Below are positions 28,038 through 42,182 of a stretch of 64,000 nucleotides of DNA, in pieces. Under the pieces are notes generated by a model. It was not told the DNA's origin. It searched no databases and worked only from the letters and a program-made list of their open reading frames with translations. Position 1 is the stretch's first letter; each line of letters begins with the position of its first letter. The position numbers and the translations under genes are program-made. Source of the DNA: Acidobacteriaceae bacterium (lineage in GTDB: Bacteria; Acidobacteriota; Terriglobia; Terriglobales; Acidobacteriaceae). The stretch spans positions 44,760-108,759 of the forward strand of contig JBEKDS010000016.1 of NCBI GenBank assembly GCA_050014235.1, read 5' to 3'.

Positions 28038-29294
28038 TCAGTGCGTCACCGGCGCGGTGTACTCCTTACCCGCCTCCAGCGGAGTCACATACGGGCCGTC
28101 CCAGTCGCGGCTGAAGATCTGCGTCAGCGTCTTCGCCGGCCCCGCGCCCTCCACAAACACAGACGCATCCACGGTGTTGTTGAAGTAGCTCCACTCCCAG
28201 TTGCCCGTGCCGATATAAACACTGCGGTCGTCGGCCACGGCGTACTTCACATGCTCGACTCTCGCATAAGGAATGAAGCCATTCGGCGACGGAGGCAAAT
28301 GGCTGAACTTGACCGCGATGTTGGGCAGGACAGCGAGACTCTTTAGGTAAGCCTGCATCGGCTCACGCAGCGCCCAGTCGGCAACGATGACGTTGACGTG
28401 GACCCCCCTGGCCGCTGCGTCGCGCAGCGCGGAATCGATCTCCCCCCACCAGCCCTTCGGTCCGTACTCCCGGATCGCCGAGAAGTCCATTACCTGGATT
28501 CGCAGGTCGCGCTGGCTGGACTCAATCAGCCGCACCAGCGCCCGTTGTTCCGGCGTGACCCAGTGCGGCATCAGGGATGGTGGACTGAATGCCGGAAACA
28601 CAATCAGCGGCTCACTCGTAGTCTCATTCACGAGCACCGGCGCTTCGGCGGTTGCCGGCGCAAACGAAGGAGGCTTCAGCGCCGCAATGGCCGCCTTCGG
28701 CAGATCGGGATTCTGCGCCAGCTCCCAGTCAAACTCGAAGGCTGCAGCGAAGGTCTGGCCAATCCGGGCATTGTGAATGCGCGCGCCGATCTCGTGGATC
28801 TCCTCAAGCGCCCGCCAGTCCCAGTTCTGGCTGCCCACAAAGACATCCTGGCCATCGATAACCATGTACTTCGCGTGCAGCACACCGCCCGTGAGCGTAT
28901 CCACTGGCAAAACCCGGACCTCGATGCCCGCCGCCTTGCGCAGCCTGTCTACGTCAGCATGGTCGCTCTTCAGCAAACTCTGATCGACCAGAATATTCAC
29001 TTTCACCCCGGCGGCCGCGCGCTCCACCAGAGCATCGAGCACCGGCGACAGCGCACTGCCGGGTCTGTCGGTGATGTAGTACGCGGCGATGTCGATCGAA
29101 TGCTTTGCGTTCCGGACCAGCTGCAGCCACACCTCAGGGGTGCGCGGAACGCCCGGCTCGCCGTAGCTCGTCCCCCCCGGCACACTCTCCACGATCTGGA
29201 AGTCCGGAACGGGAGCGGTCACGGGGCCTTGGGCAACGAGCAGCATCGCATGCCACACGCCAGTTGCCGCGAGAATCGTTCGCAAGTATCTCAT
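28038..29294 (-). CDS. Secreted phospholipase D-family protein, PLD3/PLD4/K4-like
   Basis: Signal peptide MRYLRTILAATG; two HKD motifs (LHAKYMVID, EHVKYAVAD); FQIVESVP, GSQNWDWRAL, IPYARV. Confidence 0.88.
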   Translation of the reverse strand: MRYLRTILAATGVWHAMLLVAQGPVTAPVPDFQIVESVPGGTSYGEPGVPRTPEVWLQLVRNAKHSIDIAAYYITDRPGSALSPVLDALVERAAAGVKVNILVDQSLLKSDHADVDRLRKAAGIEVRVLPVDTLTGGVLHAKYMVIDGQDVFVGSQNWDWRALEEIHEIGARIHNARIGQTFAAAFEFDWELAQNPDLPKAAIAALKPPSFAPATAEAPVLVNETTSEPLIVFPAFSPPSLMPHWVTPEQRALVRLIESSQRDLRIQVMDFSAIREYGPKGWWGEIDSALRDAAARGVHVNVIVADWALREPMQAYLKSLAVLPNIAVKFSHLPPSPNGFIPYARVEHVKYAVADDRSVYIGTGNWEWSYFNNTVDASVFVEGAGPAKTLTQIFSRDWDGPYVTPLEAGKEYTAPVTH

Positions 29295-29409
29295 CGTCGC
29301 ACTCCAGTTTATCCGAGACTGTCCTCGCGACCCACGATCCACCGCCCGCCGCTTCCAGCGTAGGATAGTTCCGTCCCGAATCCCCTCCCAAGGAGCGTCC
29401 TGCCGCACC

Positions 29410-30684
29410 ATGCAACCAAGCATCGGCAGCCCCTCCAACCCCAGCACCACCGCCCCCAGTCACCGCATAGGAGCCAGCCCCTGGCCCTTCGTCCTGCTCG
29501 TCTCCGCCGCCATCGCCATCGCCTACTTCGATCGCCAGACCGTCTCCGTGGCCATCACCGCGATCCAGCGCAAAATCCCCATCTCCAACCAGCAATTTTC
29601 GTATCTGCAAACGGCGTTCCTCCTCGCCTACGCCGCCCTCTACATCATCGGAGGCCGCCTGCTCGATCGCCTCGGCACCCGCGCCGGCTTCCTCCTCATC
29701 ATGACCTGGTGGTCGCTCGCCTGCGCCCTGCACGGCCTCGCCACCGGCTTCACCCTCCTCCTCGCCGCCCGCTTCCTCCTCGGCATGGGCGAAGGCGGCG
29801 CCTTCCCCGCCGCCACCCGCGTCGTCTCCGAGTGGGTCCCCATCCCCCAGCGCTCCTCCGCCATGGGCGTCATCAACGCCGGCACCGCCGTCGGCTCGCT
29901 CCTCGCCCCGCCCCTCATCGGCCTCGTCCTCTTCCTCAGCGGATGGCGCATGGTCTTCTTCATCTCCGCCGCCATCGGCCTCGCCTGGGTCGTCCTCTGG
30001 TCCCTCACCTACCGCAGCAACCCCGCAACCCCCGCCCAAAACACACCCACCCCCATACCCCAACTCTCCTTCGCCCAAATCCTCCGCTACCCCCTCGTCC
30101 GCTCCCTCGTCTTCGCCAAGTTCATGAGCGACTCCGCCTGGTACTTCCTCCTCTTCTGGCTGCCCAAGTACCTCTACGACGCCCGCGGCTTCGACATCAA
30201 ACACGTCAGCCTCTATGCCTGGATCCCCTACGCCGCCTCCGGCATCGGCAGCCTGCTCGGCGGCCTGCTCTCCAGCCGCCTCCTCCGCACCGGCCACTCG
30301 CTCGACCGCTCCCGCAAGCTCGTCCTCGGCCTCAACGCCTGCTGCATGCCCGCCGTCATGCTCGTCCCGCTCGTCCCCGTGCAGTATGCGCTGCTCCTCT
30401 TCAGCATCGCCTTCTTCTCGCAACAGTCGTGGTCCGGCCTCATCATGACCATCCCCGCCGACATCTTCCCTCTCTCCGCCGTCGGCACCGTCGCCGGCCT
30501 CGTCGGCTTCGGAGGCTCCATCGGCGGAGCCATCTTCGGCCTCATCGCCGGCCAGCTCCTCGGCCACGGATTCTCCTATGGCCTCCTCTTTATCCTCGTC
30601 GGCACCTTCCACCTCATCGGCTTCCTCGCCCTCCTCACCTTCGGCGGCAAACTCCAACCCCTCCGCACCCCCGACCTCGCCTGA
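29410..30684 (+). CDS. MFS transporter, ACS/ExuT-like sugar-acid permease
   Basis: AYFDRQ, GRLLDRLGTR, RFLLGMGEGGAFP, WLPKYL. Confidence 0.9.
   Translation: MQPSIGSPSNPSTTAPSHRIGASPWPFVLLVSAAIAIAYFDRQTVSVAITAIQRKIPISNQQFSYLQTAFLLAYAALYIIGGRLLDRLGTRAGFLLIMTWWSLACALHGLATGFTLLLAARFLLGMGEGGAFPAATRVVSEWVPIPQRSSAMGVINAGTAVGSLLAPPLIGLVLFLSGWRMVFFISAAIGLAWVVLWSLTYRSNPATPAQNTPTPIPQLSFAQILRYPLVRSLVFAKFMSDSAWYFLLFWLPKYLYDARGFDIKHVSLYAWIPYAASGIGSLLGGLLSSRLLRTGHSLDRSRKLVLGLNACCMPAVMLVPLVPVQYALLLFSIAFFSQQSWSGLIMTIPADIFPLSAVGTVAGLVGFGGSIGGAIFGLIAGQLLGHGFSYGLLFILVGTFHLIGFLALLTFGGKLQPLRTPDLA
30632..30684 (+). repeat. Direct repeat copy 1: MFS 3' end
   Basis: tcctcaccttcggcggcaaactccaacccctccgcacccccgacctcgcctga; recurs at 32426-32477. 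Confidence 0.85.
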
Positions 30685-30719
30685 CGCATCGTGGATAATT
30701 GTTCAACGGAGCCGAACGT

Positions 30720-31673
30720 ATGCCTACCGAGATCGTCAGCCATCAAACGCCGGAGGAGGCAGATGACCATCTCAAGAGAGGCTTGGAGTTTCTCAGCCAG
30801 GAAAAGTGGGACGATGCCTTTAGGTGTTTTCTGCGCGGAATTCAACTTAGCCCCGACCACTCCGAATTGCAACTTATGCTTGGAGTCCTGCACTACAACG
30901 GGCAAGGCGTGCCGCGGAAATACGAAGAGGCAGCAAAGTGGTACCGTAAGGCCGCCGATCAAGATAACCTTCATGCACAGTTCAACCTTGGCTTGCTTTA
31001 TGACCGGGGCGAAGGCGTAGCCCAGGATTACGCGCAGGCCGCAGCATGGTATCGCAGAGCCGCAGACAAAGGGGATGCAAATGCGCAATACCTCCTGGGC
31101 TCGCTCTACAATCATGGACAGGGCGTAGCACAGGATTTTGGGCAAGCCGCGGAGCTCTATCGCAAATCTGCCGGCCAAGGCAACGCGGATGCACAGTTTG
31201 AGCTGGGAAAGCTTTACGATCGCGGCGAAGGAGTCCCGCAGGACGATGCACGGGCGGCAACTTGGTATCACGAGGCGGCTAAGCAGGGAAAAGCCGGCGC
31301 CCAGTTCGGTCTAGGCCAAAAATACGAAAAGGGACAGGGCGTTCCGCAGGAATGGGGGCAAGCCACTTTTTGGTACAGGGAGGCGGCTGAACAGGGAATG
31401 CCGGAGGCCCAATCGGCACTTGGAGGTATCTACCTTAACGGGCCCGTCCCCAGGAATTTCAGCGAAGCTGCCCGCTGGTACCGCAAGGCCGCTGAACAGG
31501 GATGGCAATACGCCCAATTCTTCTTAGCTTTTCAATATCGGTATGGGATGGGCGTTCCCCGGGATTTGAACCAAGCTATGTTTTGGTGTCGCAAGGCCGC
31601 TGAACAGGGAAATGAACTAGCGAAGGAGTTTCTGATGGTCTTGAGTCACGGCTCAGTGCCAGAAGCGCAATGA
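30720..31673 (+). CDS. Sel1/TPR repeat protein
   Basis: About 7-8 repeats of AQFxLGxLYxxGxGVxQDxxxAAxWYRKAAxQG; no signal peptide. Confidence 0.92.
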   Translation: MPTEIVSHQTPEEADDHLKRGLEFLSQEKWDDAFRCFLRGIQLSPDHSELQLMLGVLHYNGQGVPRKYEEAAKWYRKAADQDNLHAQFNLGLLYDRGEGVAQDYAQAAAWYRRAADKGDANAQYLLGSLYNHGQGVAQDFGQAAELYRKSAGQGNADAQFELGKLYDRGEGVPQDDARAATWYHEAAKQGKAGAQFGLGQKYEKGQGVPQEWGQATFWYREAAEQGMPEAQSALGGIYLNGPVPRNFSEAARWYRKAAEQGWQYAQFFLAFQYRYGMGVPRDLNQAMFWCRKAAEQGNELAKEFLMVLSHGSVPEAQ

Positions 31674-31772
31674 GTAGGCGAATGCACCGTCTCTATTAGT
31701 CGACCGGAATGATAGGATCGGCGCGCGTCGTAATCTGAAATCCGAGTCCCAGCTACTAAAAGGAGATTATTC

Positions 31773-32072
31773 GTGGAGATTTCACGGAAGTTTACGAGAG
31801 AGTCGTTCTACGGATTTAACATGAACGATGCCGAAGTCGGCCCCGGTGTGCACCATGGTCTAGCAATAGAACTGAAACATCTCTTCGAGGCCATTGCCGC
31901 CGATGCGGATGAGCAAAATGATGAAGTATTCTTCACCAGAGACCTCGACCACGCTTTGCGAAGATTCTTTGTGGACCCGACGAAACCCAGCTTAGACCAT
32001 TTACTTGAGGTAAGCCCAGTCCTCATCCGGCCTGTCGAAGAATTACAGCTGCTTTTGCTGATGAGACCATAG
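31773..32072 (+). CDS. Hypothetical protein (99 aa, acidic)
   Basis: AAGGAG upstream of a GTG start; low-GC segment. Confidence 0.5.
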   Translation: MEISRKFTRESFYGFNMNDAEVGPGVHHGLAIELKHLFEAIAADADEQNDEVFFTRDLDHALRRFFVDPTKPSLDHLLEVSPVLIRPVEELQLLLLMRP

Positions 32073-32081
32073 ATGCCAAGC

Positions 32082-32351
32082 CTATTGGACGCGAAAACGT
32101 GAAAGGTGTTCTATGTCGTCCTCATCCATCTCAATCGCCCGAATTGGCTGAAGCGTTCCACAGTGCAAAAGTGCCTCGTCCCACTTCGTCCAGTCAACAT
32201 CTCTGAGAAACTCTGTCACGATGTGATTGTAAGCACCTGACCCGAACGGAACTGTAAATTCCAAACTGCCGTCTTGAGCCTTGATGCGGAGGGAACATCG
32301 GTGCCCAGTTGTTGGATTGTAAGAATAACTCACTGCCGTTTCGTATCCCAT
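32082..32351 (-). CDS. Hypothetical protein (89 aa)
   Basis: GGGAG RBS; protein-like composition; convergent with 31773-32072. Confidence 0.5.
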   Translation of the reverse strand: MGYETAVSYSYNPTTGHRCSLRIKAQDGSLEFTVPFGSGAYNHIVTEFLRDVDWTKWDEALLHCGTLQPIRAIEMDEDDIEHLSRFRVQ

Positions 32352-32425
32352 ATAGACTCCCTGAGTTCATCGTACCGATAAAATGCTGACGGGAAGAGTA
32401 TCCCGGATCGAATCATGAACACAAG

Positions 32426-32477
32426 TCCTCACCTTCGGCGGAAAACTCCAACCGCTCCGCGTCCCGACCTCACCTGA
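32426..32477 (+). repeat. Direct repeat copy 2: degenerate duplicate of the MFS 3' end
   Basis: tcctcaccttcggcggaaaactccaaccgctccgcgtcccgacctcacctga; about 6 differences from copy 1 including a 1-bp gap. Confidence 0.85.
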
Positions 32478-32523
32478 AACCGCTATCCTTGAAACCCAGA
32501 CGTCTCGAAGGAAATAGCAACGC

Positions 32524-33696
32524 ATGAAGATCACCTCAATCCGCACCCGCGTCGTCGAATGGACCGGCCCCACCGTCCCCCTCCCGCCCCACTTCTGCAC
32601 CAATCCCATGGACCTCGTCGCCTTCCGCCAACCCTCCATGGGCAACTTCGCCTTCCACGGCTGGGTCCTCGTCGAGATCTTCACCGACGCCGGCCTCGTC
32701 GGCCTCGGCAACGCCGCCCTCTCGCCCCACGTCACCAAGTCCCTCATCGACACCTACCTCAAGCCCATCCTCCTCGGCGCCGACCCCTGGGACACCGAGT
32801 TCCTCTGGCAGCAGATGTACCGCCGCACCATGGCCTTCGGCCGCAAAGGTGTCGCCATGGTCGCCATCTCCGCCGTCGACATCGCCCTCTGGGACCTCCT
32901 CGGCAAATCCGCCAAACAGCCCGTCTTCCGACTCCTCGGCGGCCGCACCAAGGAGAAGATTCCCGTCTACGCCAGCCGCCTCTACGCCATGCCCATCCCC
33001 GAGCTCCGCGCCGAAGCCCAGAAATATAAAGACGAAGGCTACCAGGCCATGAAGCTCCGCTTCGGCTGGGGCCCCATCGACGGCGCCGCAGGCATGACCA
33101 AAAACATCGACCTCGTCCGCAACGTCCGCGAGGTCGTCGGCGACGGCATCGACCTCATGGCCGACGCCTACATGGGCTGGACCCTCGACTACGCCAAACG
33201 CATGTTGCCCCTCCTCGAACCCTTCCACCTCCGCTGGTTAGAGGAGCCCGTCATCCCTGACGACACCCGCGGCTACGCCGAACTCAAGCGCCACGCCCGC
33301 GTCCCCATCGCCGGCGGCGAACACGAGTTCACCATCTTCGGCTTCCGCGAACTCCTCGAAGCCAACGCCCTCGACTACATCCAGTTCGACACCAACCGCG
33401 TCGGCGGCATCTCCCAGGCCCGCAAAATCTGCGCCCTCGCCGAGTCCTTCCAGGTCCCCGTCGTCCCCCACGCCGGCCAGATGCACAACTACCACATCTC
33501 CATGGCCAGCCTCAACTGCCCCATCTCCGAGTTCTTCCCGCCCGTCGACGTCGAAGTCGGCAACGAACTCTTCTGGTACATCTTCAACGGCGAACCCACC
33601 CCCACCAACGGCTTCATCGACCTCGACGACCACCTCCCCGGCCTCGGCCTAACCGTCAACGAAGAATCCCTAACCCGCTTCACCATCACCGGCTGA
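32524..33696 (+). CDS. Mandelate racemase/muconate lactonizing enzyme family sugar-acid dehydratase (RhmD-like)
   Basis: AISAVDIALWDLLGK, KLRFG, LMADAY, WLEEP, GGEHE, YIQFD, VPHA. Confidence 0.9.
   Translation: MKITSIRTRVVEWTGPTVPLPPHFCTNPMDLVAFRQPSMGNFAFHGWVLVEIFTDAGLVGLGNAALSPHVTKSLIDTYLKPILLGADPWDTEFLWQQMYRRTMAFGRKGVAMVAISAVDIALWDLLGKSAKQPVFRLLGGRTKEKIPVYASRLYAMPIPELRAEAQKYKDEGYQAMKLRFGWGPIDGAAGMTKNIDLVRNVREVVGDGIDLMADAYMGWTLDYAKRMLPLLEPFHLRWLEEPVIPDDTRGYAELKRHARVPIAGGEHEFTIFGFRELLEANALDYIQFDTNRVGGISQARKICALAESFQVPVVPHAGQMHNYHISMASLNCPISEFFPPVDVEVGNELFWYIFNGEPTPTNGFIDLDDHLPGLGLTVNEESLTRFTITG
33426..33696 (+). repeat. Direct repeat copy 1: 271-bp 3' end of the dehydratase gene
   Basis: Recurs at 34315-34585 with 11 mismatches by manual count and no gaps. 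Confidence 0.95.
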
Positions 33697-33733
33697 GAAA
33701 TCTCGCCGCCTTGAGAACGCCTGCGTTCTAAGA

Positions 33734-33797
33734 TAGGGCGGGACTTCAGTCCCGCCATCAACCGCCCGCTTGAGAGAGGGGCTTTAGCCCCTGAGGG
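33734..33797. repeat. REP-like palindromes
   Basis: ggcgggacttcagtcccgcc hairpin followed by ggggctttagcccc. Confidence 0.6.
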
Positions 33798-33833
33798 CGT
33801 AGGGTTATCCTTATGCGAGGGGGAGCATAGTCC

Positions 33834-34028
33834 ATGAACAATGTCTTGGAGATCGAACGTGCGATCAGTGCGCTGTCGCCGAAGGAGCTGGACGAGTTGT
33901 ACACGTGGATGGATCGAAACTGTCCTATCGACGTGCAGCTCAAGGCCGACCTGGATGCCGGACGCATCGACGACCGCATCGCCCGCGCTTTGGCCGATCA
34001 TAGCGCCGGAAACACGCAGCCTCTTTGA
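33834..34028 (+). CDS. Putative type II antitoxin (64 aa)
   Basis: Small acidic protein directly upstream of a RelE/ParE-like toxin; EIERAISALSPKELDEL...DLDAGRID. Confidence 0.65.
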   Translation: MNNVLEIERAISALSPKELDELYTWMDRNCPIDVQLKADLDAGRIDDRIARALADHSAGNTQPL

Positions 34029-34036
34029 CGCGCACG

Positions 34037-34306
34037 ATGGTTCACCGCGCAAACGCGGATTTCTGGAACGATTACCGCGCCCTCTCCGCTGAGGTTCGCG
34101 CCCGTGCCGACAAGCAATTCGCGTTGCTGAAAGCCAACCCGCAACACCCATCCCTGCAATTCAAGAAAATCGGCGAGCGGCGCGGCGAGGAAATTTGGTC
34201 GGCCCGAGTAACGCTGATATACCGTGCTCTCGCCGTCAGGTTGTCTGACGAATATATCTGGTTCTGGATCGGCGAGCACAACCTCTACGACGCCATCATT
34301 TCCTAG
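34037..34306 (+). CDS. RelE/ParE-like type II toxin
   Basis: FWNDYRALSAEVRARADKQFALLKANPQHPSLQFKK...WSARV...YRALA...WFWIGEH. Confidence 0.8.
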   Translation: MVHRANADFWNDYRALSAEVRARADKQFALLKANPQHPSLQFKKIGERRGEEIWSARVTLIYRALAVRLSDEYIWFWIGEHNLYDAIIS

Positions 34307-34314
34307 TCGCTTCC

Positions 34315-34585
34315 AATCTGCGCCCTCGCCGAGTCCTTCCAGGTCCCCGTCGTCCACCACGCCGGCCAGATGCACAACTACCACATCTCCATGGCCAGCC
34401 TCAACTGCCCCATCTCCGAGTACTTCCCACCCGTCGACGTCGAGGTCGGCAACGAACTCTTCTGGTACATCTTCTCGGGCGAACCCACCCCCACCAACGG
34501 CTTCCTCGACCTCGACGACCACCTCCCCGGCCTCGGCCTAACCGTCAACGAAGACTCCCTAAAACGCTTCACCATCACCGGCTGA
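34315..34585 (+). pseudogene. Duplicated 3' fragment of the dehydratase gene (repeat copy 2)
   Basis: About 96% identical to 33426-33696; no 5' part. Confidence 0.9.
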
Positions 34586-34628
34586 AAATGGGCCAGAGCG
34601 AAGCTGGCGTTGGCGAAAGCTACGGTAG

Positions 34629-34928
34629 CTAGAGTACTTCTGGGTTGAAGTCGGCCGTGTGAGGGTGCGCGAATACACCCGCGCTCGTTTTCTTCCAATC
34701 GCGTTCGTCCAGCAGGTCGAGGAGTTTCCTGAAGTACCGGCCACGGATGTAGAACATATCGCCCGATGTCTCGCGCAAGCTCACATCTTCTTTGTTGTTC
34801 TTCCATATCTCAAGCTGGAACATCGAGCCATCGATGTCTCCGCCGCTCAACTCACGGACAAAGAGCGACAAGAACTCGCCGCCCTTCTGATAAGTCCGAC
34901 TCACGATGACAACCGCCTTCGGGTTCAT
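34629..34928 (-). CDS. Hypothetical protein (99 aa)
   Basis: AAAAGGAG upstream of a GTG start; co-oriented with the lipoprotein; low GC. Confidence 0.5.
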   Translation of the reverse strand: MNPKAVVIVSRTYQKGGEFLSLFVRELSGGDIDGSMFQLEIWKNNKEDVSLRETSGDMFYIRGRYFRKLLDLLDERDWKKTSAGVFAHPHTADFNPEVL

Positions 34929-34990
34929 CGTTCACTCCTTTTTTGCCTTCACCAACGTTGCGCTGAGCCTCACTGATCCACCTGAAGGCA

Positions 34991-36400
34991 TCAATAGAAA
35001 GCTGCCACGGCTGCATCCCAACCCTCGTTCTGGATGCTATTTGAGGTAACAAAAGTAGCAGCGTAACTACCCTGTGCGGTGACAAGCTCATCTTCCACGC
35101 AGAAGTATGGCGAAACGAAACGACTGTTAAAGCCTGAACCAGCCGTTACGTTTACGTCGGCAACAGCGATCCCCAAAATCAGTTCATTTGCATGATTTGT
35201 TGTGACATTACCTGACGATACAGTCGCGCCACTGGTGCCCCCGGCAGTGCCAGTGACATCAAGAAATCCAACATTTGAATATTCGAGAATCGCCATCGAG
35301 AATTGGTTGGCGTTGGCGTAGCTCACCTTCACTGTGACGGAGAGATTACTTGAACCAGTCACGTTCGAAGCTGCATATATCCAACCAGCCCAGTCATTGC
35401 TGTCAACGGAGGATGTCTGCTTTACGGGATAGTAAGCATCGCCAGCGGAATCAGTAACCGATACGATGCTCGAACCCGGTAGAGAATTCCACCAGAAAGC
35501 AACCGCAATCAAGTCCCCTTTCGCCACGGGGTTGTTGAACGTCGCAGTATAGGTTTGAGCGGGATTAGACGCGGTGGCTTGCGATGTGAAATTGGATGAC
35601 TGGATGAAACTCGTATTAGAGGGGGGAGACGTACCTGCTCTATTTGCAATGAAGACATTGCCTGAAGTGGACGATGACACACCCGCCAAGAGTTGGCGGG
35701 TGACTCCATCTGGCAATAGGTAGTCTACTGCCACGCCAGTTTGCGTTTGGTTCGGCAGCAAGCATGGACTGCCACCATACTGCAGGGCGAAATCGAAAAA
35801 AGCGTTCCCGGATGGGTCTGGGGTAATTGTGCCGGAAAATACGCAGCCCTGACTTGTCCCGGTGAACGTTCCATTCGCTGCTATCGTTACTTGAGCCGCG
35901 ATGTTCCCGAAAAGATAACCCGACCACGTCCCAGTGATATTTGATAGCAGCGCCGGCGTGCCGAACGTGAACTGGCTACTGGGAATAGGAATGCCGCTGA
36001 ATGCCACACTTGCATTGCCGACCTCGGACACAGATCCGTTGATACTCGATCCGACGACGTATGTTGAATTGACGGTGCCGGTATAGATAACGCCGGTGTA
36101 GTAGTAGTCATTCACCTTGGCAGTGTAGGTGCCATTGTTGTATGTGCCCTGTCCTGTCATCATACCGTCCACCGTAAACACGTTGCCGCTAGTCGTGCCA
36201 TACAGGGCATAGAACGTGCTATTTGGAAGAACAATGGTCTCGAATGTTTCACCCGTGGAGGTCGTGCCCAGGTAAATACCTTGCGGAGAACCTTGGGTAG
36301 CCGGGGGTGTAGTGGTCGTCCCGCCTCCGCTATTGCTGGCTCCGCAACCAGCCAGCGTCATCACCCCGGAGGCGAGCAAGAACAATAGTCTGCGGTTCAT
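34991..36400 (-). CDS. Predicted lipoprotein, Thr/Ser/Gly-rich and beta-rich surface protein
   Basis: MNRRLLFLLASGVMTLAGC lipobox; GGGTTTTPP linker; low GC. Confidence 0.8.
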   Translation of the reverse strand: MNRRLLFLLASGVMTLAGCGASNSGGGTTTTPPATQGSPQGIYLGTTSTGETFETIVLPNSTFYALYGTTSGNVFTVDGMMTGQGTYNNGTYTAKVNDYYYTGVIYTGTVNSTYVVGSSINGSVSEVGNASVAFSGIPIPSSQFTFGTPALLSNITGTWSGYLFGNIAAQVTIAANGTFTGTSQGCVFSGTITPDPSGNAFFDFALQYGGSPCLLPNQTQTGVAVDYLLPDGVTRQLLAGVSSSTSGNVFIANRAGTSPPSNTSFIQSSNFTSQATASNPAQTYTATFNNPVAKGDLIAVAFWWNSLPGSSIVSVTDSAGDAYYPVKQTSSVDSNDWAGWIYAASNVTGSSNLSVTVKVSYANANQFSMAILEYSNVGFLDVTGTAGGTSGATVSSGNVTTNHANELILGIAVADVNVTAGSGFNSRFVSPYFCVEDELVTAQGSYAATFVTSNSIQNEGWDAAVAAFY

Positions 36401-36479
36401 GGGAAAAGCCTCTCATCGATCTCTGCGTTGGCTGCGTAACCTTGATGCCCGGCAGTGTCCCAACCCGAACAGGTGCGAC

Positions 36480-36698
36480 TCAGCCCATTATTCCCTTAGT
36501 TGGCACGAAAAAGGCGTCCGTCTGCAGCTTAGGTTCCTTAGTGACAACTGTCACGTCGCTCGTTTTGGCCCACCTCTTGGACGCCCCATCGGTCCCCAGT
36601 TGAACCTCCCAACAGGGCTCTACCGTGCGGCTGCCGACGACCTTCCAAACGCCGGGCTCCCCTGCGATACTTACTTGGTCGTTCATCTCAACCACCAT
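36480..36698 (-). CDS. Small hypothetical protein (about 70 aa, SH3/Tudor-like composition)
   Basis: GGAGG RBS; DQVSIAGEPGVWKVVG...WEVQLG. Confidence 0.5.
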   Translation of the reverse strand: MVVEMNDQVSIAGEPGVWKVVGSRTVEPCWEVQLGTDGASKRWAKTSDVTVVTKEPKLQTDAFFVPTKGIMG

Positions 36699-36804
36699 AT
36701 CGATTCCTCCACTCTACGGTATATCAGACAACAGGTAACCGGAGAAAAATGACCTCCTCTGACACGGACTCTCACTTACTCTCATTCAAAGGAGGCACCT
36801 GCTC

Positions 36805-37260
36805 ATGAAAAACCTGTTCGATGCCACGGTGGCGAACGAAGTAAAGACCCGCCTGGCACAATTGCAGCCGCAAACCGAAAGGCTCTGGGGCAAGATGACC
36901 GCGGCGCAGATGCTGGCCCATTGTTCGGTGAGCATGCAGTGGGCGGTGGGAGAAGTGGTGCCCGATAAGATAGCGCTCCCCCCGCGTCTGATCGGGCGGC
37001 TGGTGAAGCCGATGGTGTTTCGCAACGATGACCCGATGCGCAAGAACTCGCCGACCGCCAAGAGCCTCATCGTGGCCGGCGAACCGGATCTGGCCAAGGA
37101 ACGCGACCGGCTATCGGGACTGATCGACAGATCCGCAGCAGGAGGCCCGGCAGCCTGTACGACGAATCCCCACAGCTTCTTCGGAAAGATGACGCCGGAC
37201 GAATGGGCGATCTTAATGTACAAACACCTCGACCATCATCTGCGCCAGTTCGGCATGTAA
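36805..37260 (+). CDS. DUF1569 / DinB-superfamily protein
   Basis: AAGGAGG RBS; LWGKMTAAQMLAHC, HSFFGKMT...W...YKHLDHHLRQFG. Confidence 0.88.
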   Translation: MKNLFDATVANEVKTRLAQLQPQTERLWGKMTAAQMLAHCSVSMQWAVGEVVPDKIALPPRLIGRLVKPMVFRNDDPMRKNSPTAKSLIVAGEPDLAKERDRLSGLIDRSAAGGPAACTTNPHSFFGKMTPDEWAILMYKHLDHHLRQFGM

Positions 37261-37281
37261 CCGTCTCCGCCCTCGGGCTCG

Positions 37282-37301
37282 CCGCGCTATAGTGAGGCAT
37301 C
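37282..37301 (+). repeat. 20-bp direct repeat copy 1 flanking the MNT-HEPN module
   Basis: ccgcgctatagtgaggcatc, identical at 38108-38127. Confidence 0.9.
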
Positions 37302-37371
37302 TGTGGCAGGTGGGTAAGAATAACCTAGATCGACGAATCGGCACGCGATACGATGGTTGCTGGAGGCGGCC

Positions 37372-37662
37372 ATGCGACCATCGGAGGCTTTGGAGCAAAA
37401 GCGTGAGGCCATACGCGAACTGGTTCCGCGATTCCGCGCCTGCAACCCACGCGTCTTCGGCTCCGTCCTTCGCGGCCTCGATCGAGAGACCAGCGACCTG
37501 GACATCCTTGTCGATACACTGCCCGGAGCCACCCTTTTCGACTTGGGTGCGCTTCAGGAGCAATTGCGCGGGCTCCTCGGCATCCGGGTCGAAGTGCGAA
37601 CCCCGGGCGATCTGCCGCTGACCTTCCGGGACGAGGTGGTCTCGGAGGCAGAGCCAGTCTGA
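37372..37662 (+). CDS. mntA: MNT minimal nucleotidyltransferase antitoxin
   Basis: RVFGSVLRG...SDLDILVD (GS...DxD motif); 96 aa. Confidence 0.9.
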   Translation: MRPSEALEQKREAIRELVPRFRACNPRVFGSVLRGLDRETSDLDILVDTLPGATLFDLGALQEQLRGLLGIRVEVRTPGDLPLTFRDEVVSEAEPV

Positions 37663-38012
37663 TGGAACGCCGCCTCTACGAATATCTCCGCCAGATCAGG
37701 ACCGCTGCCCAGGATTCCATCCAGTTCGTAGACGGGATTAGTTACACGGATTTTCAAGCCGACACGAAGACGCAACGCGCCGTCACGATGAACCTTGTGA
37801 TCCTGGGGGAAGCCGCCGCAAAGATCGAAGAGCATTTTCCGGAGTTCGCCGTGGCGCATCCGGAGATAGCCTGGACAGCCATCCGCGGAATGCGGAACCG
37901 AATCGTCCACGAGTATTTCATCCTGAACTTCGAGACCATCTGGACGACCGTCGAAGCAGAGCTGCCACGATTGATGCGCCAGGTCGAATCGGTCCTACAG
38001 TCCGAGCCATAG
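37662..38012 (+). CDS. hepT: HEPN (DUF86/HepT-like) ribonuclease toxin
   Basis: Coupled to MNT; ILGEAA, RNRIVHEY (RxxxxH), IWTTV. Confidence 0.9.
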   Translation: MERRLYEYLRQIRTAAQDSIQFVDGISYTDFQADTKTQRAVTMNLVILGEAAAKIEEHFPEFAVAHPEIAWTAIRGMRNRIVHEYFILNFETIWTTVEAELPRLMRQVESVLQSEP

Positions 38013-38107
38013 CCGACGGCGATGAGCAGGCATACGCTGATGGTAGCGACGTGGGAAGGGGGTGGGAGCCTCGGCGCTTGATTCAGCGATCGGAGAGAGG
38101 ACGGGGT

Positions 38108-38127
38108 CCGCGCTATAGTGAGGCATC
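38108..38127 (+). repeat. 20-bp direct repeat copy 2, containing a TATAGT -10-like hexamer
   Basis: Identical to 37282-37301; 25 bp upstream of the dehydrogenase ATG. Confidence 0.9.
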
Positions 38128-38152
38128 ACAGTTCAAGAAGGAAGCCTCCCAC

Positions 38153-39022
38153 ATGACACAACGCGTCGCAATCCTCGGCCTCGGCACCATGGGCTTCGGC
38201 ATGGCCACCAACCTCCTCACGGCCGGCATCCCCACCACCGTCTGGAACCGCACCCGCGCCAAAGCCGAACCCCTCGCCGCCGCCGGCGCCCGCATCGCCG
38301 ACACCCCCGCCGACGCCGCCCGCGACGCCGACATCATCCTCACCATGCTCGCCGACGAGACCGCCTCCCGCACCGCCTGGCTCGGCGAGCACGGCGCGCT
38401 CGCCGCCGCAAAACCCAACACCATCCTCATCGAATCCAGCACCGTCACCCCCGAGTGGATCGCGGAACTCGCAGCCGCAGCCTCCAAACGCAATCTCCGC
38501 TTCCTCGACGCCCCCGTCACCGGCAGCCGCATGCAGGCCGCCGCCGGCCAGCTCTCCTTCCTCGTCGGCGGCGACCCCTCCACGCTCGAAGAGGCTCGCC
38601 CCGTCCTCGCCGCCATGAGCAAGGAGATCGTCCCCGTCGGCCCCATCGGCAGCGGCGCGCGCCTTAAGCTCATCAACAACTTCCTCTGCGGCGTCCAGAT
38701 CGCCTCCCTCGCCGAGGCCATGGTCTGGATCGAGCGCGGCGGCCTCGACCGCACCCAGGCCCTCCGCTTCCTCACCACCGGGGCCCCCGGCAGCCCGCTG
38801 CTCGGCGTCATCTCCGCCCGCATGGCCGCGCAGAACTACGAGGTCAACTTCCTCCTCCGCCTCCTGCAAAAGGACATGAACTACGCCATCGCCGACGCCA
38901 ACACTCTCAATCTCGACCTCCGGACTGCGCGCACCGCGGAAGCACGCATGGCGGAGGCCGTGACGGCCGGCCACGGGGAACAAGATATGTCCGCCGTCGT
39001 CGAGTCAGTTCGCTCCACCTAA
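38153..39022 (+). CDS. NAD(P)-dependent beta-hydroxyacid dehydrogenase family (GarR/MmsB-like)
   Basis: ILGLGTMG, WNRT, LDAPVTG, LKLINN. Confidence 0.92.
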   Translation: MTQRVAILGLGTMGFGMATNLLTAGIPTTVWNRTRAKAEPLAAAGARIADTPADAARDADIILTMLADETASRTAWLGEHGALAAAKPNTILIESSTVTPEWIAELAAAASKRNLRFLDAPVTGSRMQAAAGQLSFLVGGDPSTLEEARPVLAAMSKEIVPVGPIGSGARLKLINNFLCGVQIASLAEAMVWIERGGLDRTQALRFLTTGAPGSPLLGVISARMAAQNYEVNFLLRLLQKDMNYAIADANTLNLDLRTARTAEARMAEAVTAGHGEQDMSAVVESVRST

Positions 39023-39031
39023 CCACTCTTT

Positions 39032-39140
39032 GTCATTCCGCAGCGTAGCGGAGGAATCTGCTTCTGTATCTGTTGTCATTCTGAGCGAAGCTCAGAATCC
39101 CCGCATTTGTGCCGCACAAACTCCGGGTGCCCCATAGCCT
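39032..39140. repeat. Cluster of REP-like elements
   Basis: gtcattccgcagcgtagcggaggaatc, gtcattctgagcgaagctcagaatc and gggtgccccat. Confidence 0.7.
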
Positions 39141-39232
39141 GCCCTGAGCTTGCCGAAGGCTCAGGCAGCATCACCGCCTGACATGCGAATACTCCCTCGC
39201 GTACACTCACTGGCGAACTGCGAAACCCGCCC

Positions 39233-40636
39233 ATGCCCCTCACCCGCCGCACCCTCCTCACCACATCCGCCGCCCTCGCCACCCTCCCCCGCCTCCTCCT
39301 CGCTCAGGCCCAGCACGATCCCTCCTGGCCCGCCGCCCCACCCGCCGACACCGACCCCATCCCCGCGCCCGCCACCAAAACCGCGAAAGCCCTCCAAACC
39401 CACATCGCCACCCAGCTCGGCCCCACCCAGTGGGAGAACTTCTACCACCGCATCCGCACCCTCAACACCGACCTTGCCACCAACGGCCTCCGCCCCATCA
39501 ACGGCCTCTCCGGCACCTTCCTCACCGGCTACCCCAACAACGAGTTCTACGATTGGGACCTCTACTTCGAGAACCTCTACCTCTCCTATTACGGCATCTA
39601 CCCCTGGTGCTTCTCCAACCTAAAAGAATTCCTCAACCGCCAGCAGCCCGACGGCTACATCAGCCGCTCCCTCATCCACTCCCGCGATCGCCAGCACTTC
39701 AAGCCCTTCCTCGCCCAGCTCGTCGTCCTCGGCGCAAAGCAGGACAACAACGACTACACCTGGCTCCGCGGCAATTACTACGACCGGCTCGCAAAATACC
39801 TCACCAAATGGTTCTCCTACGACAGCGACCACAACGGCCTGCCCGTCTGGAACTCCTGCGACGCAGCCGGCACCGACAACCAGTGGTCCCGCGCCGGCGC
39901 GCTCGCCTCCTTCGAGGTCGAAGGAGTCGACCTCGCCGCCTACCTCGTCCGCGAGCTCCGCGCCATGGCCGTCATCGCCACCCACCTCAACCTCCCCGCC
40001 GACGCCTCCGCCTACACCCAACACGCCGACGACCTCATCAAGCTCATCAACGCCACCTTCTGGGATGAGAAGGAAGGCATGTACTTCGACCAGAACGAAA
40101 AGACCGGCCAGCGCGTCCCCGTCAAGGCCGCCACCAGTTTTACCCCGCTTTTCGCCGGGGCCGTCCCCGCGGCCCGCGCCAAACGCATGGTCCACGAGCA
40201 CCTGCTCAACCCGGCGGAGTTCTGGCTCCCCTACCCCGTCGCCAGCTACGCGAAGACCGAGCCCGACTACTACCAGGGCGCACACATCATCTACGCCGCG
40301 CACCGGGAGTGCAACTGGCGCGGCCCCAACTGGGCCCCTATAAACTACATGATCTTTCAGGGCCTCCGCGCCTATGGCTACCACGCCGAGGCCCGCGACC
40401 TCGCCGCGCGCTGCCTCGACCAGGTCCTCGTCAAGAACCCCATCCTGCGTGAGTACTACAACGCCGAAACCGGCGCGGGGCTAGGCAAGGACCGCTTCTG
40501 GGGATTCACCAGCCTCTACTTCGGCATGGTCCTCGAGACCCTCACCGACTACGACGCATCCTCCCTCGACCACCCCAACCGCCCCATCTTCGCCACCGAA
40601 CTCGGCATCCGGTTCCCGCCCCTCCCCAAGGCCTGA
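39233..40636 (+). CDS. GH63/MGH1-like (alpha/alpha)6 glycoside hydrolase, Tat-exported
   Basis: TRRTLL signal; FYDWD, AGTDN, FWDEKEG, WRGPNW, EYYN. Confidence 0.8.
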   Translation: MPLTRRTLLTTSAALATLPRLLLAQAQHDPSWPAAPPADTDPIPAPATKTAKALQTHIATQLGPTQWENFYHRIRTLNTDLATNGLRPINGLSGTFLTGYPNNEFYDWDLYFENLYLSYYGIYPWCFSNLKEFLNRQQPDGYISRSLIHSRDRQHFKPFLAQLVVLGAKQDNNDYTWLRGNYYDRLAKYLTKWFSYDSDHNGLPVWNSCDAAGTDNQWSRAGALASFEVEGVDLAAYLVRELRAMAVIATHLNLPADASAYTQHADDLIKLINATFWDEKEGMYFDQNEKTGQRVPVKAATSFTPLFAGAVPAARAKRMVHEHLLNPAEFWLPYPVASYAKTEPDYYQGAHIIYAAHRECNWRGPNWAPINYMIFQGLRAYGYHAEARDLAARCLDQVLVKNPILREYYNAETGAGLGKDRFWGFTSLYFGMVLETLTDYDASSLDHPNRPIFATELGIRFPPLPKA

Positions 40637-40781: not shown

Positions 40782-42182
40782 ATGCCCAAGCCGCCCATCT
40801 CCCGCCGCAACGTCCTCACCACCTCCGCCTCGCTCGCCGGCCTCGCCGCCCTCAACCGCCTCGGCCTCGCCCAATACGGCCGCCCGCCAGTCGCCGCGAC
40901 CCCACCCGAAACATCCCCCGTCGAGCCCCCCGCGACCGCCATCGCCAAGGCCCTCTACGCCGACATCGGCCCCGACGCCTGGACCCAGCTCATCCATCGC
41001 CTCAAAGGCACCAACGCCGACCTCATCTCCCAGGGCCTCCGCCACATCCCCGGCGTGCAAGGCACCTTCCTCACCGGCTATCCCTACAACGAGTTCTACG
41101 ATTGGGACCTCTACTTCGAGAACCTCTACCTCTCCTACTACGGCGTCTACCCCTACTGCTTCACCAACCTCAAGGAGTTCCTCAACCGCGAACAGCCCGA
41201 CGGATACGTCAACCGCTCGCTTATCAAGCAGCGCGACCGCCAGCAGTTCAAGCCCTTCCTCGCCCAGCTCGTCGTCCTCGGCGTCAAGCAGGACCACGAC
41301 GACTACTCGTGGCTCAAGGGCAACTACTACGACCGCCTCGCCAAATACATCGACAAGTGGTTCACCTACGACGGCGACCACAACGGCCTGCCTGTCTGGA
41401 ACTCCTGCGACGCCGCAGGCACCGACAACCAATGGTCCCGCGCCGGCGCGCTCAGTTCTTTCACGGTCGAGGGCGTCGACCTCGCCGCCTACCTCGTCCG
41501 CGAGCTCCGCGCCATGGCCGTCATCGCCACCGGCCTCGGCAACTCCGCCGACGCCGCCGCCTACACCAGGCGCGGCGACGCCGTCGACAAGCTCATCAAC
41601 GACACATTCTGGGATGAGAAGGAAGGCATGTACTTCGACCGCAACGAGAAGACCAGCAAGCTCGTCCCCGTCAAGTCCGCCACCAACTTCACCCCGCTCT
41701 TCTCCCACTCCGCCACGCCCGAGCGCGTAAAACGCATGGTCCAGGAACACATTCTCAACCCCAACGAGTTCTGGCTCGAATACCCCGTCGCCAGCTACGC
41801 CAAGACCGAACCCGACTACTACCAAGGCACGCACAACGAGTGCAACTGGCGCGGTCCCACCTGGGCCCCCACCAACTACATGATCTTCCAGGGCCTGCGG
41901 CACTACGGCTACCACACCGAAGCCCGCGAGCTGGCCCGCCGCCTCTTCAACATGTGCGTGATGAAGAACCCCATGCTGCGCGAGTACTACAACGCCGAGA
42001 CCGGCGGAGGCCTCGGCCAGACCCGCTTCTGGGGATTCACCGCCCTCTACTACGGCATGCTCCTCGAGTCCTACGCCGACTACGACGCCTCATCCCTCGA
42101 CAAGCCCCTCTACCCCATCATCCCCAAAGAACTCGGCGTCAACTTCCCGCCCCTCCCCGCCGATACTTCCGCGACCGCATAA
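40782..42182 (+). CDS. Tandem paralog GH63/MGH1-like glycoside hydrolase, Tat-exported
   Basis: SRRNVL signal; closely similar to 39233-40636. Confidence 0.8.
   Translation: MPKPPISRRNVLTTSASLAGLAALNRLGLAQYGRPPVAATPPETSPVEPPATAIAKALYADIGPDAWTQLIHRLKGTNADLISQGLRHIPGVQGTFLTGYPYNEFYDWDLYFENLYLSYYGVYPYCFTNLKEFLNREQPDGYVNRSLIKQRDRQQFKPFLAQLVVLGVKQDHDDYSWLKGNYYDRLAKYIDKWFTYDGDHNGLPVWNSCDAAGTDNQWSRAGALSSFTVEGVDLAAYLVRELRAMAVIATGLGNSADAAAYTRRGDAVDKLINDTFWDEKEGMYFDRNEKTSKLVPVKSATNFTPLFSHSATPERVKRMVQEHILNPNEFWLEYPVASYAKTEPDYYQGTHNECNWRGPTWAPTNYMIFQGLRHYGYHTEARELARRLFNMCVMKNPMLREYYNAETGGGLGQTRFWGFTALYYGMLLESYADYDASSLDKPLYPIIPKELGVNFPPLPADTSATA

Follow-up and report, generated by a model that had tools for sequence, protein, structure and literature searches.

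According to our analysis, a short interval (positions 29410-39022) of a 64,000-nt stretch of contig JBEKDS010000016.1 from an Acidobacteriaceae bacterium (assembly GCA_050014235.1; the whole stretch is referred to as the window) carries the scars of several small insertions beside conserved genes. Three co-oriented host genes, encoding a major facilitator superfamily (MFS) transporter, a sugar-acid dehydratase and a dehydrogenase, have four low-GC cargo blocks between them. The insertions duplicated their targets, the sites are empty in relatives, and no mobility genes accompany the cargo; the same kind of scar recurs elsewhere in the genome and in another species, and the closest relative (genome G128, about 96% identical in the host genes and hereafter called the sister genome) has other cargo at the junctions concerned. 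Our tentative explanation, to which we give a probability of about 45%, is that these are recombinase-free insertions with a long target duplication of variable length, produced by host recombination through one homologous and one illegitimate joint.

The locus is situated on a 148-kb contig (C16) of a 4.2-Mb draft genome (G000) assembled in 51 contigs. The GC content of the host genes is 0.64-0.72, with a strong C skew, and that of the cargo 0.49-0.61, with no such skew. A first-pass annotation of the window had described three inserts, each bracketed by duplicated host sequence. This is correct for three blocks, but a fourth (34586-37281) exists that has no direct repeat at its flanks and no match in the sister genome. 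The three direct repeats (DR1, DR2 and DR3; Table 1) differ in length and origin. The copies of DR1, which is the end of the MFS gene, are identical at 47 of 53 positions with one indel, and the TGA stop codon is the end of both. Copy A is nearly identical to the end of the MFS gene in the sister genome, and copy B is followed by the ancestral 46-nt spacer (aaccgcTATCCTTGA...), which runs up to the dehydratase ATG and matches pieces of the sister spacer. The two copies of DR2, the 3' end of the dehydratase gene, align without gaps over 271 nt with 11 mismatches (260/271, or 96% identity), and again TGA terminates both; identity is even along the whole repeat, with no pattern of a core between degenerate arms. 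DR3 is an exact 20-mer, CCGCGCTATAGTGAGGCATC, taken from the dehydrogenase promoter and occurring only twice in the whole 4.2-Mb genome. Its copy A retains the ancestral upstream bases (gctcg) and its copy B the ancestral downstream bases (acag.tcaagaagg...ATG). In the annotation of the Joint Genome Institute (JGI), a 71-aa gene is called on copy B of DR2 (window region 34378-34593; L055 709-924), which is probably a spurious open reading frame (ORF) made by the scar.

Comparison with relatives showed that the repeated sequences are normally present once. Fifteen or more genomes of the genus have their matches to the MFS and dehydratase genes 3-65 nt apart, and in two of them (G019 and G018) the MFS stop codon overlaps the dehydratase start. 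The sister genome has a single dehydratase 3' end and a single copy of the 20-mer, with the same upstream gctcg, and reads gctcgCCGCGCTATAGTGAGGCATCacagctcaagaagg...ATG; its homology to the window starts exactly at 38108, and neither the toxin-antitoxin (TA) pair of cargo 2 nor the MNT/HepT pair of cargo 4 is present at its locus. The empty sites anticipated by the first-pass annotation thus exist in relatives. Since relatives carry each repeated sequence once, the repeats in our genome are true target duplications.

The earlier picture of an uninterrupted run of three genes was correct only for the MFS and dehydratase genes, which adjoin in relatives; the ancestral order there is dehydratase, then a 340-aa GguC/AraD1 gene (NCBIfam score of 436 bits, cut-off 340), then dehydrogenase. 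This gene, gguC, the third of the ancestral operon, has kept its position in G102, G145 and G081, lies elsewhere in the genome in G090 (C5:540244-541239, outside the locus), is broken into three frames in G059 (C1:1465706-1466682) and is absent from the sister genome; it was not found anywhere in our genome. This looks like the stepwise loss of one pathway gene that left its three neighbours intact.

The sister genome has been modified at the same junctions in its own way. Its spacer between the MFS and dehydratase genes contains a 3-kb block with AraC-like and hydrolase genes, where the sole flanking repeat is the hexamer TATCCT. Two hydrolase genes of this block (C1:2740-5715, L014) appear frameshifted or truncated, which suggests that this cargo is undergoing decay where it lies. 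Repeat elements and a gene for a TPR/aspartyl-protease protein lie 3' of its dehydratase gene, and another TA pair (Gp49/HigB-like, with a helix-turn-helix partner) lies 5' of its dehydrogenase promoter. As the cargo at the same junctions differs between the two genomes, the interval is a turnover hotspot in this clade.

None of the machinery expected of a mobile element was found. Domain scans with Pfam, NCBIfam and PADLOC of the cargo ORFs (all annotated ORFs of at least 64 aa) revealed no transposase or integrase, the cargo ends have no terminal inverted repeats, there is no Rfam match in 29000-39500, and contig C16 has no match to the tyrosine recombinase family PF00589, eight members of which are encoded elsewhere in the genome. 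The earlier statements that mobility genes are lacking and that the host genes remain intact are therefore both borne out, the latter by Pfam matches in all three genes and by the invariant dehydratase residues kept in copy A of DR2. Transposition was rejected, because there is neither a transposase nor a terminal inverted repeat and the duplication lengths (20, 53 and 271 nt) are not fixed. Site-specific integration was likewise rejected, on account of the missing contig-linked tyrosine recombinase, the absence of a common core among the repeats and the unrelated repeats found around the MNT/HepT cassette in two genomes. An integron origin was considered as well: the repeats are host-derived, no PF00589 integrase is present on the contig, and the two-hairpin element E70 (described below), lies upstream of the cassette and occurs in the sister genome without it.

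The arrangement is also reproduced outside this assembly. JGI metagenome contigs from three samples, 3300041417, 3300040759 and 3300041926, encode dehydratase and HepT proteins identical to those of the locus. Comparison of the two longer contigs with the window showed 100% identity for both, and one of them covers both 271-nt copies. An assembly artefact is therefore unlikely.

The scar is not confined to this locus. The MNT/HepT cassette was detected on contigs of five other metagenome-assembled genomes (MAGs) with 80-85% identity, where homology begins about 55 nt 5' of the mnt start codon and runs through to the stop codon of HepT, and conserved termini are absent. In one of these, an uncultured Acidobacteriaceae MAG of another species (G013), an 85%-identical cassette is bracketed by a duplicated cupin gene 3' end of 74 nt (copies 96% identical). 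We considered whether the right end of our cassette could be a carried flank of this cupin gene and dropped the idea, as the two have only a 10-mer in common and no cupin orthologue is present in our genome. Within our genome, at least four additional scars were found. On C36, a gene for a 137-aa membrane protein lies between copies of the final ~80 nt of a GH13 gene, and on C10 the final 79 nt of alr are duplicated, with 82% identity, on the two sides of a ~420-nt insert. The other two are a 26-nt repeat (C5) and a 41-nt repeat over the start of an ABC ATPase gene (C2). In all five scars made at gene 3' ends (MFS, dehydratase, GH13, alr and the cupin gene of G013), the repeat ends no more than about 10 nt from the stop codon. 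An orphan GH13 3' end lies 5' of ftsZ in both sisters (C36:29807-30609 in our genome; C4:460918-463093, L025, in the sister). The two orphans do not begin at the same left boundary, and their cargo is unrelated, with the 137-aa membrane protein in our genome and a 152-aa protein on the opposite strand plus an EthD-like gene in the sister; this represents either independent events at one site or cargo replacement.

Three of the approximately seven scars of the genome fall within 8 kb at the present locus, for which a rough chance estimate is of the order of 1e-4, and the locus is therefore a hotspot. Among 185 low-GC islets, a boundary-repeat score of at least 16 was reached by 4 (about 2%), compared with 0.4% of control pairings. 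Since most islets are free of repeats, other routes dominate and the route that leaves scars is a minority one. The earlier proposal of a general mechanism rather than chance consequently stands in one part, since the scar recurs in the genome and in another species, and is weakened in another, since the route is a minority one and a permissive site would explain the clustering equally well or better. In our opinion the hotspot lies here because the decay of gguC in this clade left a permissive slot, which accounts for the clustering at least as well as a targeted mechanism does.

A tandem TA array at C2:67648-68682 is of a different kind. Two antitoxin-like genes surround a PIN-like toxin gene and have in common a 106-nt 5' part that is 93% identical (MRVTVEIPDELAA...), so repeats can also arise from the cassettes themselves.

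Table 1. Features of the interval 29410-39022 (window coordinates)
Feature	Position	Strand	Remarks
MFS transporter gene, 424 aa	29410-30684	+	Pfam MFS_1, E = 1.6e-53; intact
DR1 copy A: last 17 codons of MFS gene + TGA, functional copy	30632-30684	+	local alignment
Cargo 1, 1.74 kb, GC ~0.50-0.58	30685-32425		composition break
Sel1-repeat protein (cargo 1)	30720-31673	+	Pfam Sel1, E = 1.2e-64
ORF, 99 aa (cargo 1)	31773-32072	+	no family found
ORF, 89 aa (cargo 1)	32082-32351	-	no family found
DR1 copy B: decayed remnant of MFS 3' end	32426-32477	+	1-nt deletion, 5 mismatches
Enolase-superfamily sugar-acid dehydratase (MR/MLE), 390 aa	32524-33696	+	Pfam MR_MLE_N, MR_MLE_C; intact
DR2 copy A: last 90 codons of dehydratase gene + TGA, functional copy	33426-33696	+	271 nt
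Cargo 2, 618 nt	33697-34314	+	E70 element + TA pair
E70, ~70-nt two-hairpin element (GGGCGGGACTTCAGTCCCGCC ... GGGCTTTAGCCCC)	33729-33797		start of cargo 2
Antitoxin-like protein, 64 aa (cargo 2)	33834-34028	+	partner 5' of toxin gene, 4-nt overlap
ParE-like toxin, 93 aa (cargo 2)	34025-34306	+	Pfam ParE_like, E = 6.7e-6
DR2 copy B: orphan dehydratase 3' end without gene	34315-34585	+	271 nt
Cargo block 3, 2.7 kb, GC ~0.50-0.60	34586-37281		flanking repeat absent
ORF, 99 aa (block 3)	34629-34928	-	no family match
Secreted/lipoprotein-like protein, 469 aa (block 3)	34991-36400	-	no family match
ORF, 72 aa (block 3)	36480-36698	-	no family match
DinB/DUF1569 protein, 151 aa (block 3)	36805-37260	+	Pfam DUF1569, DinB_2
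DR3 copy A: 20-mer of dehydrogenase promoter, ancestral upstream context kept (CCTCGGGCTCG)	37282-37301	+	exact repeat
Cargo 4, 806 nt, with its own upstream region	37302-38107	+	MNT/HepT pair
MNT antitoxin (cargo 4)	37357-37662	+	Pfam NTP_transf_2; PADLOC PDC-S09
HepT/HEPN toxin (cargo 4)	37662-38012	+	Pfam HepT-like, E = 1.6e-24; start overlaps mnt stop
DR3 copy B: 20-mer including -10-like TATAGT, 25 nt 5' of dehydrogenase ATG	38108-38127	+	exact repeat
6PGDH/3-hydroxyisobutyrate-dehydrogenase-type gene, 289 aa	38153-39022	+	Pfam NAD_binding_2, NAD_binding_11; intact

The gene pairs of cargo 2 and cargo 4 are predicted type II toxin-antitoxin modules. A remnant with 84% identity to the promoter and antitoxin part of cargo 2 is present in G048, where the locus is an unrelated one, and cargo 1 was not found in any of the relatives searched. 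With respect to the host genes, the best NCBIfam match of the dehydratase is L-rhamnonate dehydratase, with a score under the cut-off, and its amino acid identity to orthologues is 83-86%. The dehydrogenase starts at ATG 38153 and not at GTG 38051, a choice also made in the JGI contigs (289 aa), and has 92% nucleotide identity to its counterpart in the sister genome.

Comparison of the two copies of DR2 with the sister genome gives some indication of their history. At the residues invariant in six orthologues, copy A is unchanged and copy B has the substitutions P to H, F to Y and I to L. In the three-way alignment, 7 nt are specific to copy B (repeat positions 43-192), 4 to copy A and 2 to the sister genome; three of the four sites specific to copy A fall in the last 30 nt, where copy B equals the sister. 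Differences from the sister are concentrated in the cargo-proximal halves of the copies (12 sites, compared with 3 in the cargo-distal halves; binomial p ~0.035). Because its own changes hit invariant residues, copy B looks like a decaying native remnant, and the extreme 3' end of the working dehydratase gene looks as if it had been imported together with the cargo. The notion that both 271-nt copies are functional alleles was not upheld, given these three substitutions in copy B and the ratio of four non-synonymous codon changes to one synonymous.

A further indication comes from E70 at the start of cargo 2. It is identical at 68 of 69 positions to an element 3' of the dehydratase gene in the sister genome, and the flanks on both sides are unrelated. 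It could be a terminator, a recombination site or one of the repetitive extragenic palindromes. Because E70 matches an element of the sister locus, cargo 2 seems to be derived from a relative's homologous locus. Four more copies of this family, which has variable spacers, are present in our genome (C2:57187, C45:7001, C36:20032 on the minus strand and C29:36011), making five with that of the window. As a candidate att- or attC-like site, E70 has no consistent link to cassettes, and the two copies checked against integrase coordinates are not adjacent to any.

In the route that we prefer, DNA of a related strain would enter the cell with a small, self-promoted cassette beside the same conserved gene. 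One end would recombine by homology in the conserved neighbour, which may be the 3' end of a gene or a downstream promoter with its gene, and the other, non-homologous end would be joined illegitimately. If this joint fell inside the conserved sequence and not beyond it, the stretch from the joint to the edge of homology would come to lie on both sides of the cargo, and TA cargo would then resist deletion mediated by the repeats. One edge of each repeat would be fixed at a stop codon or promoter boundary because the conserved sequence stops there, and the other would be arbitrary (20, 53, 74 or 271 nt) because the position of the illegitimate joint varies. The same route would leave the neighbouring genes intact and cause alternative cargos to be stacked instead of exchanged, while a homologous donor would explain the donor-like patch in copy A and the locus-derived E70. 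One-sided homology combined with an illegitimate joint has been demonstrated at the bench (PMC3240628). For the present locus we infer this route and its donor from the arrangement of the sequences.

Several points weigh against this explanation. Exact-protein look-ups revealed no donor allele, that is, the same cargo beside the same gene without a remnant. Two of the four assessable MNT/HepT sites (L028 and L031) have no flanking repeat, and the same is true of most low-GC islets. The three-way pattern in DR2 comprises only 13 sites, with one exception (repeat position 131). Homology-facilitated illegitimate recombination (HFIR) at the bench usually yields a deletion and not a duplication (PMC3240628). 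In addition, the model does not explain the origin of cargo lying flush against a stop codon. As for L031 itself (CAZZWG010000320.1, 1394-1724, ~80% identity), the contig is labelled as a Verrucomicrobia MAG, so that its cassette reflects either cross-phylum transfer or a binning error.

Among the competing explanations, a one-step illegitimate capture deserves serious attention, although we consider it unlikely on balance. A foreign linear fragment would be trapped at a staggered break, at offset breaks of sister chromosomes or during a template switch of replication, with fill-in by non-homologous end joining or a related pathway; the offset would become the duplication, and selection would keep those events that span a stop codon or promoter. 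The duplication lengths do form a continuous series of 6 (TATCCT in the sister genome), 20, 26, 41, 53, 74, 80 and 271 nt, several of which are too short for homology, Ku is encoded in the genome, and a reading of this kind, invoking double-strand breakage, was favoured for restriction-modification units (PMC2853133). Yet any offset over the stop codon would serve, so the position of the repeat end near the stop codon in five of five cases is not predicted; the presence of a locus-specific E70 inside cargo 2 would be a coincidence, and a stagger of 271 nt requires extensive unwinding. Less probable still is a Campbell-type single crossover, in which RecA would integrate a circle carrying the cargo and a piece of the host gene and the copies could later recombine to release the circle. 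Crossovers of circles at the bench gave duplications of 109-950 bp (PMC3240628), and two features suit this view. One is the locus-derived E70 in cargo 2; the other is the order in which the copy-specific sites of DR2 occur (b b b a b b a a), as expected if the copies were reciprocal chimeras and the crossover fell somewhere from repeat position 192 to 242. The 271-bp DR2 thus agrees with the single-crossover route put forward in the first-pass annotation, but the 20-bp DR3 and the 6-nt repeat of the sister genome are too short for efficient recombination by RecA, whose minimum in Escherichia coli is ~23-27 bp. Moreover, the repeats around the cassette family in G000 are unrelated to those in G013, so that no fixed host piece travels with it, and the substitutions at invariant residues in copy B of DR2 are unlike those of a functional donor allele. 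No circle or empty allele was seen among the contigs of the three metagenome samples; exact-protein look-ups and a search of all retrieved loci for the 13-mer CGCTATAGTGAGG, which lies inside the 20-mer, revealed the same arrangement only, on contigs of those samples.

Elements that integrate at the 3' ends of genes (tRNA genes, fda, trmE) regenerate their target gene and produce a direct repeat that stops where the gene stops, and the genome encodes eight tyrosine recombinases on other contigs. We nevertheless regard decayed site-specific elements of this type, integrase-less or mobilised in trans like satellites or cis-mobilizable elements (CIMEs), with attachment sites mimicking gene 3' ends, as a very improbable source of the cargo: no tyrosine recombinase is encoded on the contig, each insert has its own repeat with no common core, the MNT/HepT cassette is flanked by unrelated repeats in two genomes, cargos of 0.6-1.7 kb leave no room for lost machinery, and identity in DR2 is uniform over 271 nt. 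Hardly any weight can be given to an assembly artefact or chance similarity. The genome is a draft in 51 contigs, but there are 11 differences between the 271-nt copies, the repeats occur nowhere else in the genome, separate metagenome contigs carry the locus and the sister genome has the sequences in single copy.

The arrangement resembles the insertion with long target duplication (ILTD) known for restriction-modification units (Nobusato et al. 2000, Gene 259:99; Furuta, Abe & Kobayashi 2010, PMC2853133), in which the direct repeats often span start or stop sites, mobility genes are absent and a role for DNA breakage by the cargo was suspected by the authors (PMC2853133). In both cases a small unit is present or absent between relatives, the empty site has the target in single copy, there are no mobility genes and the neighbours are intact. 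The definition of ILTD includes a duplication of more than 30 bp and of variable length (Furuta 2010); the repeats of 53 and 271 nt at our locus and of 74 nt in G013 exceed this limit, and the 20-nt DR3 is below it. In contrast to ILTD units, the cargo here consists of TA pairs (ParE-like and MNT/HepT), a Sel1 protein and membrane proteins and not of restriction-modification genes, several events are stacked at one locus, other cargo occupies the same junctions in the sister genome, and the host belongs to the Acidobacteriota. As the cargo is not a restriction-modification system, a double-strand break made by the cargo cannot be the common cause. The locus is thus an ILTD scar extended to TA and other small cargo. 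In the open literature searched, no use of the term ILTD for TA cassettes was found; both terms occur in seven papers, and in the one that was checked ILTD is confined to the reference list.

Likenesses to other systems are partial. HFIR and single-crossover integration (PMC3240628) likewise involve either one homologous anchor with an illegitimate joint or a crossover of a circle that duplicates 109-950 bp; bench HFIR, however, mostly deletes recipient DNA, whereas the proposed joint at our locus would lie within the anchor and duplicate it. CIMEs and islands at gene 3' ends also have cargo bracketed by direct repeats of a gene end with the gene intact. Their repeats (at fda, trmE and tRNA genes) are fixed attachment sites of a dedicated recombinase, while here the repeat and its length differ from one event to the next and there is no linked recombinase. 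Chromosomal transfer hotspots have in common with our locus a single interval between conserved genes with differing cargo in sister genomes. The usual explanation for turnover at such hotspots is double homologous exchange in the flanking core genes, a process without duplication scars of the sort observed here.

The sequences downstream of the locus are of separate interest. The spacer 3' of the dehydrogenase gene (39023-39235) contains three GC-rich palindromic units of ~35-40 nt each (e.g., GTCATTCCGCAGCGTAGCGGAGGAATCTGC), which gave 38 BLAST matches in our genome, with dozens of sites at 90-97% identity, and were also present in every relative searched. They are a family of the genus resembling repetitive extragenic palindromic (REP) elements. 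A 141-aa ORF between two 33-nt repeats (C25:31644-32377), which judged by eye resembles a REP-associated tyrosine transposase (IS200-like), may encode the enzyme that spreads these REP-like elements. The spacer is followed by tandem GH63/MGH1-like glycoside hydrolase paralogues (39233-40636 and 40782-42182) with 69% amino acid identity and twin-arginine-like N-termini in both.

Overall, these observations bear on a poorly documented process. Few prokaryotic genes are as mobile as those of TA and small defence-like modules, yet in chromosomes these mostly lack a mobility gene. The long-target-duplication scar is not specific to cargo that cuts DNA, and this points to host recombination. Where a draft genome or MAG has no recognisable mobile elements, such scars could help to detect recently acquired genes and to date their acquisition roughly, and the orphan gene ends should be kept in mind as a source of small spurious ORFs. 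A broader reading is conceivable, although we hold it to be rather doubtful: in Acidobacteria, recombinase-free stacking may be general, with alternative cargos of different strains added serially behind the same conserved gene through one homologous and one illegitimate joint, each decaying copy of the gene end serving as a datable scar, and TA modules enriched because they block loss through recombination of the two copies. If this is true, addiction and defence cassettes would accumulate in arrays at gene ends with no need for the machinery of mobile elements.

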